From an uncultured Chloroflexia bacterium (GTDB lineage Bacteria; Chloroflexota; Limnocylindria; Limnocylindrales; CSP1-4), in NCBI GenBank assembly GCA_963768655.1, contig CAVYIM010000006.1:1-64000 (forward strand): a stretch of 64,000 nt of DNA. Direction: 5' to 3'. Positions 51,551 to 60,110 of the stretch are shown piece by piece. The notes below the pieces were generated by a model. It ran no database searches. It was not told the origin of the DNA and saw nothing but the letters and a program-made list of their open reading frames with translations. How positions within the stretch are numbered: position 1 is the stretch's first letter; each line of letters starts with the position of its first letter. A program made the translations under genes and the position numbers.

Positions 51551-52921
51551 CTACGCGGCCAACATTTCGGCTCGCGGACCGTTCGCCCAGAGCCGGCGGA
51601 GCAGCCTGGCAAGGGCGGCGCCGTGGACCGCCAGGGGCGCCGGATAGCTGAACGTGAGCGTCCGGCTGGAACCCCGCAGCGTGACGCGGGCGATGAGCGG
51701 CGACAGAACCATCCCCACGCTTCGCATCTCGCGAAGCGACAGCCGTTCGGGCCGCGGGCCGACCACGCCCACCTCATCAGGACTCAGCCACAGACCGAGG
51801 GGCTGGCGCTGGCCTTCCCGGCGGGGGCTGTAGACGAAGGCGAGCAACTCACCCGCCTCGCGCCGGGCTGCATCATGGAGCGCCTGAGCTTCGTCGAGCT
51901 GGCGAAAGCGCTCGGCTGTTTCCTCGACGAACTCGACGGCCTCGGTCACATAGACACGACGCAGCCGTTCGCGGTTGCGCTCGGGCAGGAAGCTCGATGC
52001 GAGGGACTCGAACACGCGGACCTCGGCCTCGAGCTCCACCGGAAGGGCCACGTTGTGCCGGCCTCCCCCCGTCTGGAGGACGAGCCGCAAGGCATCGCGT
52101 TCATCCTCCACCCGCACGCCCGTGAGTTGCTCGACGGGCACCATGTCGACGTCCACGCCCCAATCGAAGAGGTACGAATCCGGGTTCGTGTGGTCGACCA
52201 GCCACAGGACCTGGCGGTCGGTGAGGAGCAGGAGTCCGGAACGGTGGTCTCTTCCGCCGCGGACGCGGGTGAGAAGCCCGGCGTCCGAACGCCACGGCCG
52301 CTCGATCGAGTAGTGCAGGCGCTCGTCCGGATCGAGCATGCCTTCGAGCCCGCGCAGGAAGCGCGGCGGCAGTCGATCCAACGAACGTTCGGCCTGGCTG
52401 TAGACGCCGCCCGACCGGAGAGCCTCCTCGGACATGCCCTCGGGCGGTCGCCATGCCAGACCGCCCGTGATCCGGCCGCGTCCCCGACGCTCCCGGAACG
52501 CCCGTCTTGCCGCCGAGGCGTGCTCCGAAGCGCGCGCCGCGTCGATCCACTCGGCGTCCGGCGACACACGCCCGACCGCTCGCAGAACGGCGTCGACGGG
52601 GAGCGTGGCGCCCGGCAGACGAGCCACCAGGACGAGACCGGCAGCGTCCGAGAAACCGCCGGCTAGCTCGGCGTCGATGCGAGCCCCAACGAAGCTGGAC
52701 GCCGGAAGCACCACCAGAGCCGGCACCTCGCGGCCGTGGCCATCGTCGGAATCGACGAGGAACCCCCGGTCGGCGCCGAGCCACAGGCCGCCGGCTCGGG
52801 CGCCGCGCGCCACGATGCCACCACGCGCTAGGTCGCGTTCGTAGTCGAGGCCCGGGCCGAGTGCCTCCTCGACCTCGACCAGGAGGGTGTGGCGGGAGTG
52901 GCGCGCGTCGCGGGCGGTCAT
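51551..52921 (-). CDS. hypothetical protein: degenerate family-I pyrophosphatase-like N domain + PH-like C region
   Basis: LVEVE..DYE...ADRGFLVDSDDGHGREVPALVV..SSFVGARI....GGFSD echoes the PPase fold; GLLLLTDRQVLW; ATGA-coupled to the upstream gene. Confidence 0.6.
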   Translation of the reverse strand: MTARDARHSRHTLLVEVEEALGPGLDYERDLARGGIVARGARAGGLWLGADRGFLVDSDDGHGREVPALVVLPASSFVGARIDAELAGGFSDAAGLVLVARLPGATLPVDAVLRAVGRVSPDAEWIDAARASEHASAARRAFRERRGRGRITGGLAWRPPEGMSEEALRSGGVYSQAERSLDRLPPRFLRGLEGMLDPDERLHYSIERPWRSDAGLLTRVRGGRDHRSGLLLLTDRQVLWLVDHTNPDSYLFDWGVDVDMVPVEQLTGVRVEDERDALRLVLQTGGGRHNVALPVELEAEVRVFESLASSFLPERNRERLRRVYVTEAVEFVEETAERFRQLDEAQALHDAARREAGELLAFVYSPRREGQRQPLGLWLSPDEVGVVGPRPERLSLREMRSVGMVLSPLIARVTLRGSSRTLTFSYPAPLAVHGAALARLLRRLWANGPRAEMLAA

Positions 52922-54306
52922 TGCGCGCTCCGGTGATGCGGCACGGCCCGAGCCGCTCTCCGCAGCTGCCGCCAGCGACCGATCGCGCGAGCCGTTTCTC
53001 GCTCGCTGATCGCCGCCCGCCCGTAGACCGCCAGTTCGTAGTCCGCGGCGAGCAGCCCGAGCGGCAGGCGCGGGAGCCCGAGTGTCCCTGTGCGCGCGGC
53101 GTGGACTTGGGGCGTCTCGGCCGGTCGCCGTCCCAGCTCGCCACGGCCGGCGAGCTCGTCCAGGAGCGCGAGGTACGCCTCCGGGGCCGTCGCTGGACGC
53201 CGCGGCAGGGCTGCGCGAGGATGGATGGCGAGGCGCGGCAGGTGGAGGTTCAAGCTCGGCGGGTGGACTTCCCTGCGGCGCTCCTCGCGTGGGGGCGTGG
53301 CGACCTTCGGTTCAGGCCGACTGACGGCGAACCTGCGGAATCCGACGGCCAGCAGCACGATGACGGCGACGACACCGGCCACCACCAGCCAGCCGAGGGG
53401 CAGCGAGCCCCCGGGCACGGGTCCGCCGAGTGACGACACAGTGTGCGGGCCGCCGGAGCTCCCGGCGGCGGTCCCGGTCGTGGGAACGCTTCCACCTGTG
53501 CCGAAAAGGGAAGGCAGATGTATGCCGTTGAGCACCTGCCCGATCGCGGCCGCCAGCGCGACGAGAAGACCGCCGAGCGGTGCGAGCAGCAGGCCGATCG
53601 CACCACCGACCGGGCCGCCGATCGCAGTCAGCCCGTCCCGGGCGGAGGTCCCGCTCAAGATCGCGATCGGGATCCCCAGAGCCGCGACCACGACCACTAC
53701 GCCGGTCGAGACCATCGCCCAGGTGCGCCCGCCACGGCTTTCCGAGCCGAGTAGCTCGAGCTCCCGCAGGCGAGCGTGGCCGATCGCGAGCAACCCAGCC
53801 GCCACGCAGACCGCCGACCCGACGAGGGCCGGCCCAACGAAGGGGCCGGAGGATCGAAGGTGGGGCAACCACGAGGCGGCCAGCACCGGGAACGCATACG
53901 CGAGCGCCCGGGTCGAGGTTTCGATCTCGTCGTCCGCGTGCTCGTGGGCTGCGCCTCGAAGAACCGCGACGCCGAGCAGCCAGCCTGCGGGGTGAACGAG
54001 GAGGGCGCTCAGCGGGTTGTCCAGGGCCGCGAGGGTCGTCCGGGCCGCCGGATCGACGAGCCACCCGAGAGCGCCGGCAAGCACGGCGAGAGCCGCGATC
54101 CACGGCACCCGCGGCGTTGATCGAGGGCGCAGGCGAGCCCAGACGAGCCCGGCCACGGCCGCCGGGCAGAACTCGACGAGTGACAGCGGTGCGCTCGAGC
54201 TCGCGCCCAGGAGCGCGATGGCGGCGTACGCGACGCCTACGAGGCTGCCTTCGAGCAGGCCGTCGAGGGCAAGAGGCAGAAGATCAGCTCGCCAGGACCA
54301 ACGCAT
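52918..54306 (-). CDS. multi-pass membrane protein with C-terminal DUF4129 domain
   Basis: Many TM segments; AYLALL..L...G..RRPAETP..HA...LAADYELAVYG. Confidence 0.8.
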   Translation of the reverse strand: MRWSWRADLLPLALDGLLEGSLVGVAYAAIALLGASSSAPLSLVEFCPAAVAGLVWARLRPRSTPRVPWIAALAVLAGALGWLVDPAARTTLAALDNPLSALLVHPAGWLLGVAVLRGAAHEHADDEIETSTRALAYAFPVLAASWLPHLRSSGPFVGPALVGSAVCVAAGLLAIGHARLRELELLGSESRGGRTWAMVSTGVVVVVAALGIPIAILSGTSARDGLTAIGGPVGGAIGLLLAPLGGLLVALAAAIGQVLNGIHLPSLFGTGGSVPTTGTAAGSSGGPHTVSSLGGPVPGGSLPLGWLVVAGVVAVIVLLAVGFRRFAVSRPEPKVATPPREERRREVHPPSLNLHLPRLAIHPRAALPRRPATAPEAYLALLDELAGRGELGRRPAETPQVHAARTGTLGLPRLPLGLLAADYELAVYGRAAISERETARAIGRWRQLRRAARAVPHHRSAQ

Positions 54307-55519
54307 CGCTCGTCCGCCAGTCCGGGGCCAGAGACCCGCTCGTCGCGGTCAGTCCGACCGCCCGCGCCGCCGCCACGGCACGCGGGCCGTCCGCGCCGAG
54401 CCCAACGAATTGCACCGGATGGCCCGACCGGTCGAGCCGGGTGAGAGAGGTGAGGTAAGGCGCCGGGTCGCGGGCGGCGAGCACGATCACGGTCGTGCCC
54501 GGCGGGATCGTCCACGGCAGCCGGGCGATGAGCCGCTCGAACGGCGCCGAAGGGACCTCGCTCAGGCGCCCCAGCAGGTCGGTGATGGCGGCCAGCTGGT
54601 CGCGGCCGGCTCGAGGCGCGACGAGGGCGAACCGATCGACCGTCCGGCTGAACGCAGCCGCGGCAAGCCCGCACGACGCACCCTGGGCGAGGGCGTGGCG
54701 CGCCAGCGACGCCGCCGCGACCATCAGGCTCTCGACGAGTTCTTCGTCGAAATGGAGCGTCCAGTGCGGGCCCGGCATCGTCTGCACGTCGAGCGCGATG
54801 AGGACCTCACGCGCCCGCGATGGGTCGAACCGCTTGCTCACCGCCGCCCCCGTCCTGGCCGTCGCCCGCCAGTGAACGCGTCGCAACGGATCGCCAGGCT
54901 GATACGGGCGGACACCGGCGAAGAGAGCCGGGTCTTCGAACAGGCTTCGCTGGGCGGGCAGGAATCCGAGTGGCAGGCGCTGCGGGCTGGCGATCCGCAC
55001 GGGCACGCTGCGCGGCCGGACGATGTACGTGGCGCGGTCTTCGTGCTCCTCGGTCGCGGCCCCGCGCCCGAACAGGTCGGCGACCGTGACCTGGACGGGG
55101 CCGAAGGAGTAGACGCCGCGGTGGTCCGCGGCGATCGTGAGGTGGCGCACGACGCGCTCGTACCAGCCTACGGTCCAGCGACTGCGCAGAACGGTGAATC
55201 CCGGTCGGTCGCTCCGCGCGAGCGGTTCGTCGCGCACCACGGCGCCCTGCGTCGCAAAGTCATCGATCGACAGCCAGGCCAGCGGCAGGGGTTTGTCGTT
55301 CCAGACGGCGATGTCGAGCGGTACTTCGTCGCCCCACACCGCCCGGTCACGGCCGATCCGCCTCTCGTAGTGGAGGTCGCGCAGGCCGTAGCGGGTCCAC
55401 AGCTCTGTTACGCCGGTGGTGAAGAGTGCGAGGAGCCCCACGAGCACGAGCCCCGGCGCCGCCGCGACGGCGCCGGCTGCCACCATGGCGAGGCCGAAGG
55501 CGAGTCCCCAGCGGGTCAT
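54284..55519 (-). CDS. DUF58 (vWA-like) protein
   Basis: RGVYSFGPV...DLFG, GVRPYQPGDPLRRVHWRATARTG. Confidence 0.9.
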   Translation of the reverse strand: MTRWGLAFGLAMVAAGAVAAAPGLVLVGLLALFTTGVTELWTRYGLRDLHYERRIGRDRAVWGDEVPLDIAVWNDKPLPLAWLSIDDFATQGAVVRDEPLARSDRPGFTVLRSRWTVGWYERVVRHLTIAADHRGVYSFGPVQVTVADLFGRGAATEEHEDRATYIVRPRSVPVRIASPQRLPLGFLPAQRSLFEDPALFAGVRPYQPGDPLRRVHWRATARTGAAVSKRFDPSRAREVLIALDVQTMPGPHWTLHFDEELVESLMVAAASLARHALAQGASCGLAAAAFSRTVDRFALVAPRAGRDQLAAITDLLGRLSEVPSAPFERLIARLPWTIPPGTTVIVLAARDPAPYLTSLTRLDRSGHPVQFVGLGADGPRAVAAARAVGLTATSGSLAPDWRTSDALVLAS

Positions 55520-59882: not shown

Positions 59883-60008
59883 CCGTCAGCCTTTCCGCCG
59901 GCGGCTGGCCGGCCAACTCTGAGCGTGCCGGCGCCGAGCCAGTGTCGGAGTTTGGGGGAAGATCCGCGAAGGACCATGCTGGCTCCGGCTGCGGGTTGCT
60001 TCACGAGA

Positions 60009-60080
60009 AGAAGCTGTCATCGGCCGAGCCGCGGTTCGCCGGCCCCGGTCTTGGGAGGTCGGCTGGCGAGCCTCATCGCC
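60009..60080 (-). promoter_or_regulatory. fluoride riboswitch (crcB motif) #1, upstream of eno
   Basis: GGC-GAUGAGGCUC-GCC ... UGAC-AGCUUCU; GAGGCU/AGCUUC pseudoknot; TACAAT -10 at 60087-60092; competing GCUUC/GAAGC hairpin. Confidence 0.7.
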
Positions 60081-60110
60081 GCCGCCATTGTAGCCGCAAT
60101 GCCGGCTTGA

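Follow-up and report, generated by a model that had tools for sequence, protein, structure and literature searches.

Two leader-headed gene units on the minus strand

We have analyzed a stretch of 64,000 nucleotides (positions 1 to 64,000 of contig CAVYIM010000006.1, assembly GCA_963768655.1; referred to here as the window) from an uncultured Limnocylindrales-type member of the Chloroflexota, in which an earlier reading of the bare sequence, the original prediction, had placed a candidate fluoride-response locus at positions 51551-60092. The locus consists of two units with eight genes in all, every gene lies on the minus strand, as do all features below unless stated otherwise, and each unit is headed by a leader that resembles a fluoride riboswitch. 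This layout of eight co-oriented genes was confirmed by gene calls together with Pfam and NCBIfam assignments. Leader 1 precedes genes for an enolase (58575-59882; TIGR01060 of NCBIfam, 637 bits), for a protein of 167 residues without a Pfam or NCBIfam match that we term hyp167 (58013-58516), and for a cysteine-rich DUF6062 protein with CxxC motifs (57193-58011; PF19538, 28.7 bits at a cut-off of 27). Leader 2 precedes genes for a NUDIX hydrolase with an intact Nudix box (56517-57062; PF00293, 76.5 bits), a MoxR-type AAA+ ATPase (55516-56520; 194.5 bits for AAA_3 and 71.1 bits for AAA_lid_2 of Pfam), a DUF58 protein with two N-terminal hydrophobic segments (54284-55519; PF01882, 42.2 bits), a DUF4129 membrane protein with about eight hydrophobic segments (52918-54306; PF13559, 33.4 bits), and X456, a protein of 456 residues without a match in Pfam or NCBIfam (51551-52921) that was characterized with an AlphaFold2 model and Foldseek. 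As evidenced by hydropathy analysis, from which these segment counts derive, the DUF4129 protein is a multi-pass membrane protein, as had been proposed. The ATGA overlaps predicted at 56517-20, 55516-19 and 52918-21 are exact, and the DUF58 and DUF4129 genes share 23 nt. There are two intergenic leaders, of about 120 nt ahead of the NUDIX gene and about 230 nt ahead of the enolase gene.

Leader 2 (57100-57159), the aptamer of what we designate type A, is composed of a 5-bp P1 stem with the loop AUGAAGCU, a P2 stem CCCG/CGGG and the 3' tail UGAUGGCUUC. In both leaders the P1 loop measures 8 nt and starts with AUG, and all six loop-tail positions of the pseudoknot pair, one of them as G-U. The P1 stem with its loop of 8 nt, the P2 stem and the UGAUG tail of leader 2 are in register with the consensus of RF01734, the Rfam model of the fluoride riboswitch, and where its loop and tail depart from this consensus, they do so in a mutually compensating way. 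A further likeness to RF01734 is an intrinsic terminator (57081-57111) with an 11-bp stem, a 4-nt loop and UUUUU that overlaps the tail; called at 57111-57086 and followed by TTTTT, it is the sole terminator-like site in 51300-60300 and part of the minimum-free-energy fold of the leader. The tail GGCUUCU provides both the 3' strand of the pseudoknot and the 5' arm of this terminator, whose stems covary between type A leaders and a second group, type B, to be described below.

Leader 1 (60004-60089), the enolase-type aptamer, scored 20.0 bits against RF01734 (E 0.0037) in a permissive search of 501 nt, aligning with the model from end to end, and is the best RF01734 match in the whole assembly of 3.37 Mb. 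Here P1 with the loop AUGAGGCU is followed by an inserted hairpin of 25 nt, a P2 of 3 bp and the tail AGCUUC. The insert between P1 and P2 sets this leader apart from RF01734, as do two or three additional bases that precede the tail, although an insert is also carried by the crcB-type riboswitches of the same genus. The A-rich linker 5' of P2 is retained as GAACC, and in the predicted fold a hairpin takes up the tail. Enolase-type leaders were found in eight copies in six genomes, at 18.0-21.7 bits with RF01734, and among these P2 reads CCG/CGG, CUG/CAG or CUG/UAG, a variation that is compensatory as judged by eye. A further departure from RF01734 is the candidate expression platform, based on an upstream open reading frame (uORF) of 32 codons (59879-59977) whose stop overlaps the enolase ATG in another ATGA. 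All eight copies contain such a uORF, of 29-40 codons and with a GGAG Shine-Dalgarno sequence, that starts 23-27 nt past the aptamer and ends at or near the enolase start, while the encoded peptide is not conserved. Note that an M23 RNA family match (59890-59936, 24.0 bits at a cut-off of 41.2) falls inside the uORF just ahead of the enolase Shine-Dalgarno sequence; it is probably due to chance.

All eight enolase-type leaders sit ahead of an enolase gene, and the copies in relatives are 92-94% identical to the window enolase. The other enolase of the same genome (C3:622327-623631), the housekeeping copy, is only 83% identical, so that the window enolase is a dedicated extra paralogue. Riboswitch control of enolase, a further part of the original prediction, is itself already published, enolase being listed among fluoride-riboswitch genes in the accessible text of PMC11139923.

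The -10 boxes proposed for both units fared less well. The hexamers TACAAT (60087-60092) ahead of leader 1 and TAGCAT (57167-57172) ahead of leader 2 can both be read from the sequence as -10-like elements, but a sigma-70 scan of 51300-60300 returned no full promoter. The AAT of TACAAT is conserved and opens all eight enolase-type leaders; TAGCAT is conserved in type A leaders and is replaced by TATAGT in type B.

Conservation of the leaders among relatives

A covariance model built from five orthologous leaders of the leader 2 type (R1), with which leader 2 itself scores 90.2 bits, was run across 51 genomes of the genus and found 19 places at 50-93 bits in 13 genomes, the next best score being 22.7 bits. 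These places fall into type A, which precedes NUDIX or stands immediately ahead of MoxR, type B, upstream of a MutS_V gene (the first open reading frame in three loci, whereas one more locus has it as the second gene), and a third group with one copy 0.5 kb upstream of a metallophosphoesterase gene. A second model (R2), for which 16 leaders were used that all belong to types A, B, C or X, gave 47 hits at E<=0.1 over 259 kb of loci, all at expected leaders. Leader 2 reaches 73.7 bits with this model and leader 1 19.5 bits. R2 thereby retrieves enolase-type leaders as well as crcB-type riboswitches, the latter at 14.8-19.9 bits, neither of which had been used in building it. In the genome under study leaders 1 and 2 are the only such elements.

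For counts of base pairing the 16 leaders were aligned with MAFFT, as the model-made alignment misaligned the elements with a hairpin insert. In the MAFFT alignment 96.7% of the cells pair, versus 89.7% after shuffling (none of 500 shuffles reached the observed value) and 31.6-47.5% in slid registers, and four pairs change on both sides. P1 is paired to 95% and P2 of the leader 2 type to 93.8%, with two pairs in each changing on both sides; the pseudoknot is paired to 100%, its variation being one-sided only. Across the types, the loop and tail combinations include GAAGCU/GGCUUC, GAAGCC/GGCUUC, GAAGCU/AGCUUC, GAGGCU/GGCCUC and GGAGCG/GGCUCC, with a switch between A-U and G-C at loop position 4. 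Note that the script that extracted loops and tails yielded 46 distinct rows, of which those of L080, L157, L139 and L125 were misparsed, left L147:3855 unparsed, and picked a different 6-mer for three crcB-type rows.

RF01734 was also run on ten relatives. Riboswitches of 42.6-47.9 bits are located directly upstream of crcB in four of them (G024, G051, G016 and G050), and in G047 another one above the cut-off heads a pair of genes, the first for a CPA2 antiporter and the second crcB. Sub-threshold matches comprise seven enolase leaders (18.0-21.7 bits) and two type B leaders (21.6 and 22.6 bits), and in G001 the pair hyp167-DUF6062 has a leader of its own at 20.7 bits. A likeness to RF01734 beyond those of structure is that the elements are located in the 5' leaders of genes connected with fluoride toxicity, namely enolase, mutS-like genes and, in relatives, crcB. 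The different types also occur side by side, as in G024, where an enolase leader (499701), a crcB riboswitch (502184), a type A leader (504802) and a type B leader (509812) lie within about 10 kb of one contig. The crcB gene of this island (L075, G024:C3, 2322-2658) matches the CRCB profile in two pieces and has one in-frame TGA, and it may be broken or be a gene pair.

Across the taxonomic family, R2 had hits in 25 of 151 genomes, representing 12 of 49 genera, with up to five on one contig, so that islands with several riboswitches seem to be common in this group. In a member of another genus (G579:C82:11787-22360) five R2 hits were counted within about 11 kb. Elsewhere, a riboswitch of 34.5 bits with RF01734 (L125, G066:C11, 3676-3755, minus strand) lies ahead of a membrane protein whose translation, inspected by eye, resembles an anion transporter of the TauE/SafE type.

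Gene linkage and the proteins of the second operon

X456 belongs to a protein family with matches in 25 of 401 Chloroflexota genomes, and in 17 of these a hit with RF01734 or R2 (E<=1e-3) lies upstream on the same strand. Six of the 17 riboswitches exceed the Rfam cut-off, at 36.5-46.5 bits. In the relatives G001, G003 and G047 the gene behind a type A leader is NUDIX, and X456 (79-82% identity) is its immediate neighbour downstream; as the MoxR-DUF58-DUF4129 triad is missing from between the two genes, it is an insertion present in some genomes. Conversely, MoxR comes immediately after the type A leader in G005 and G024, where NUDIX is absent and no X456 was detected downstream. Three further genera, represented by G305, G154 and G360, have clusters of the type MoxR-DUF58-...-X456. 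Of the X456-linked leaders of the latter two, one is weak, with 12.0 bits in the R2 search (E 0.1), and the other was recognized by eye only. As to the MoxR/DUF58 co-occurrence whose survey had been suggested earlier, further clusters exist, two of them with riboswitch-like leaders, but the triad is not the conserved core.

The remaining members of the locus recur more widely. A riboswitch operon opens with DUF6062 and closes with an X456-like gene in G346, G110 and G170, and in G346 and G145 the riboswitch is separated from the X456-like gene by a DUF190-CBS gene, with which the operon starts in G145. For hyp167, 25 homologues were found, and in a distant family an X456-like gene is followed by a reading frame of 168 residues that is 29% identical to hyp167 (E 6e-12). 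The riboswitch-linked genes that recur across the phylum are X456, DUF6062 and hyp167. Coiled-coil reading frames at L173 and L169 were also considered as kin of hyp167, but no relation was detectable. In G145, two identical riboswitches of 77 nt with 38.5 bits each (L166, G145:C16, 7698-7774 and 10950-11026, minus strand) stand 3.2 kb apart, one heading a MutS_V gene and the other the DUF190-CBS gene that is followed by X456.

For X456, a first AlphaFold2 run with the single sequence gave an unusable model (pLDDT 32.7) and was replaced by one based on an alignment of 58 of the 78 homologues found, which reached a pLDDT of 86.8. In a Foldseek search of this model against the Protein Data Bank (PDB) the top hits were all family I pyrophosphatases (E 3.4e-7, target-normalised TM 0.49-0.55), and the fold shared with this family (PF00719) spans the N-terminal 130 residues. 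The sequence itself does not match PF00719 even at E<=10, but the distant family member L173 does, with 26.1 bits at a cut-off of 23.5, and also matches PDB entry 1qez at E 1.2e-6. To judge the active site we used what we take to be the catalytic set of family I pyrophosphatases, the metal-binding Asp triad and a number of Lys and Tyr residues. In a phmmer alignment, itself weak (E 1.5), X456 shows GHGREVP opposite GDGDPVD; for L173 the alignment opposes EDGDPLD and EDGTSLK, and the family alignment has no conserved acidic triad at this stretch. The N-terminal domain of X456 thus looks like an inactive family I pyrophosphatase, as the alignments show replacements in the triad and at the majority of the remaining catalytic positions, and the description of the last gene as a pseudo-pyrophosphatase holds. 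It further differs from family I pyrophosphatases in being fused to two more domains. In the model each of these has seven strands and a C-terminal helix, a beta-sandwich-plus-helix arrangement, and both look PH-like, as suggested by this secondary structure and by weak leads. An atlas search with residues 185-456 returned only unnamed clusters at 0.92, and bPH_3, DUF4429 and BBS5/PH-like clusters at 0.81-0.83 that serve as leads only. A complex prediction for X456 with hyp167 gave no verdict, at a score of 0.00.

The solved structures nearest to the NUDIX protein are Ap4A and Ap6A hydrolases, in agreement with the predicted Ap4A type, the best being the Ap4A hydrolase 3i7u (E 1.4e-15). Its translation (56517-57062) contains the Nudix box GX5EX7REUXEEXGU. 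In the combination of an AAA_3 ATPase translationally coupled to DUF58 and a membrane protein, the adjoining genes resemble known chaperone modules of MoxR AAA+ and vWA-like (DUF58) proteins; they differ from these in standing under a riboswitch and in being linked to a pseudo-pyrophosphatase. The genome contains three other MoxR paralogues, one of which adjoins a DUF58 gene.

The assembly, which is 88.6% complete, was further searched for exporters. CrcB (PF02537) had no hits, in agreement with the earlier statement that a known exporter is absent from the window, and there were no hits either for a CPA2 antiporter of the riboswitch-linked kind or for PF00719, the family I pyrophosphatases; a pyrophosphatase of another type may serve the organism instead. 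The single CLC protein has 676 residues and a GREGP motif, without a riboswitch upstream, and judging by its motifs it presumably is not a CLC-F. Within the genus, 15 of 51 genomes have CrcB, two of the 13 with type A or B leaders versus 13 of the 38 without, figures from which we claim no anti-correlation, as the genomes are related and incomplete. A search for sequencing runs listed no RNA run and only four DNA runs, with 5-6% of words.

A probable fluoride response and its alternatives

We consider it likely, with a probability of about four in five, that the locus is a fluoride-responsive gene island of Limnocylindrales-type Chloroflexota under two divergent members of the fluoride riboswitch family. 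Leader 2 would be a transcriptional ON switch, in which binding of Mg-fluoride lets the P1 loop GAAGCU pair with the 3' tail GGCUUC; because the terminator needs the same tail as its 5' arm, this would allow read-through into NUDIX-MoxR-DUF58-DUF4129-X456. Leader 1 combines the same core with the inserted hairpin and probably controls translation of the uORF coupled to the spare enolase. The proteins induced in this way would mitigate intracellular damage by fluoride rather than export the ion. The extra enolase and the Ap4A-type Nudix hydrolase could compensate for fluoride-inhibited Mg enzymes, and X456, DUF6062 and hyp167, in some lineages with the MoxR-DUF58-DUF4129 machine, may constitute an uncharacterized tolerance module. 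The architecture of the RNAs, its conservation and the linkage of the genes are observed here, and regulation of the locus by fluoride is well supported as a prediction; fluoride as the ligand and the function of the second operon are inferred. The originally proposed action, a replacement or unloading of enzymes jammed by Mg-F-Pi, finds no support in the present data and is a conjecture.

A number of observations weigh against this reading. With the Rfam model, suggested earlier as a check on both aptamers, leader 2 fails the refuting condition set in the original prediction and leader 1 is marginal: a scan of the window at gathering thresholds gave RNase P and one tRNA only and no RF01734, leader 2 has no match even at E<=10 in a search of 551 nt, and leader 1 with its 20.0 bits also remains below the curated 34 bits. 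Note that this cut-off is an operational threshold and not a structural feature. In leader 2 the linker 5' of P2 reads AGUUU, with UUU where the consensus has AAC; it is mainly for this missing AAC that we call leader 2 a variant, and binding or specificity could therefore differ. Loop and tail are invariant within type A and within type B, so that the pseudoknot covaries between types only, and shuffled tails of single sequences reach the observed pairing in 4-32 of 500 cases for most rows. The fold of leader 1 is no better than that of its shuffles, its expression platform being a candidate only. Three of the eight MoxR orthologue loci in the genus (G003, G002 and G023) show no leader, and in six of the 25 genomes with X456 no linked riboswitch was found, although four of these six have less than 2.4 kb of contig upstream. 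Finally, with an assembly of 88.6% completeness an exporter may be unassembled.

From such observations it could be argued that leader 2, like the other leaders of types A and B, is derived from a fluoride riboswitch but has since changed its ligand or ceased to have one, these leaders being variants of altered specificity or plain attenuators, and that the second operon is not regulated by fluoride. The failure of leader 2 with RF01734 and the change of the A-rich linker to U residues in types A and B agree with this, as does the fact that among the 19 leaders of types A, B and C in the genus there is none with crcB or a CLC gene immediately behind it. However, a leader whose loop and tail are identical to those of leader 2 and which shares the UGAUG core (L157) scores 36.7 bits, so that the failure of leader 2 is to be ascribed mainly to UUU in place of AAC and to its GC-rich stems. 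Type B copies are recognized by RF01734 at 21.6-22.6 bits ahead of MutS_V, a known class of fluoride riboswitch genes, both types share islands with crcB riboswitches above the cut-off, and X456, which follows type A leaders, follows riboswitches of 38-47 bits in other lineages. We therefore regard a change of ligand as improbable. That the resemblance of both leaders to riboswitches is a product of chance in GC-rich intergenic DNA is very nearly out of the question. Sub-threshold or absent RF01734 scores and weak fold z-scores (-1.79 for leader 2 and 0.02 for leader 1) would be expected in that case, but not 19 places in 51 genomes that score 50-93 bits where the background does not exceed 22.7 bits, nor eight conserved copies of leader 1, the covariation in the alignment of 16 leaders, or the location of both elements in 5' leaders. 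As divergent members of the fluoride riboswitch family, the two aptamers of the original prediction are thus upheld by structure, covariation, cross-retrieval and shared islands, with the reservation that both are sub-threshold.

Within a fluoride-regulated island the role of the individual genes is less certain. The MoxR-DUF58-DUF4129 genes might be a passenger insertion, a paralogue of a common housekeeping module without a part of its own in fluoride tolerance, with only enolase, NUDIX and X456 being of importance, and the absence of the triad between NUDIX and X456 in three relatives, the further MoxR paralogues in the genome with one beside a DUF58 gene, and the leaderless MoxR orthologues of G003, G002 and G023 all point this way. 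On the other hand, type A leaders that directly precede MoxR in G005 and G024, where NUDIX is missing and X456 was not detected, argue against a passenger, as do the MoxR-DUF58-...-X456 clusters of three other genera, two of which (G154 and G360) are headed by riboswitch-like leaders. A passenger role is possible, but we consider it doubtful. The mitigation of fluoride damage that we favor can also be cast in a far more specific form, in which X456, DUF6062 and hyp167 would be an undescribed, export-independent system for fluoride tolerance, driven in some lineages by MoxR-DUF58-DUF4129, and the degenerate pyrophosphatase pocket of X456 would recognize Mg-fluoride-phosphate species or blocked enzymes that are then sequestered or cleared at the membrane. 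This detailed proposal is offered as speculation and is rather unlikely to hold in full.

Several of these elements are already in print, in so far as the accessible portions of the sources show: fluoride riboswitches as such, their control of enolase and mutS-like genes, and sub-threshold variants. The published regulon comprises Fluc/CrcB, CLC-F, Na+/H+ antiporters, enolase, pyrophosphatase, HAD phosphatases, formate hydrogen lyase and mutS (PMC11139923, PMC2864571), mutS being a crcB-motif gene class in the second of these, and the riboswitch-linked enolase, MutS_V, CPA2 antiporter and crcB genes of the relatives conform to it. A candidate cluster of divergent fluoride riboswitches has been reported with 307 loci next to crcB, all below the RF01734 cut-off and with a maximum of 28.9 bits (10.64898/2026.10.21.760802, as far as available). 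Our elements resemble it as sub-threshold leaders that are recognized by gene context. By description, the level at which the comparison was made rather than by sequence, they differ in that the cluster is defined by co-location with crcB, whereas the window elements and their kin precede enolase, NUDIX, MoxR and MutS-like genes. Control of X456, DUF6062, hyp167 or MoxR-DUF58-DUF4129 by fluoride was not found described in the literature covered, which did not extend to the gene list and supplements of Baker et al. 2012.

Fluoride riboswitches have been the main guide to the genes that cells employ against fluoride, and here, in an abundant, uncultured lineage of soil and freshwater, an entire group of these switches escapes the standard model. 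The switches that are missed point to families with no record in Pfam or the literature (X456 and hyp167) or known as domains of unknown function only (DUF6062, DUF58 and DUF4129). Should tolerance without export prove correct, it would bear on means of fluoride resistance other than Fluc and CLC-F, a matter of relevance to the bioremediation of organofluorines, and should X456, DUF6062 and hyp167 indeed form a system, genomes without Fluc or CLC-F could survive fluoride.

Some minor features of the window concern DUF6062 and NUDIX. A second DUF6062 paralogue is encoded on the plus strand (5173-5862) and is 36% identical over 231 residues to the one in the locus; a search with R2 revealed no riboswitch-like element near it. 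The DUF6062 gene of the locus encodes a run of His-Gly repeats at its C-terminus (57240-57270, minus strand), and four tandem repeats of 15 nt are present in the sequence for the C-terminus of the NUDIX protein (56540-56620, minus strand).

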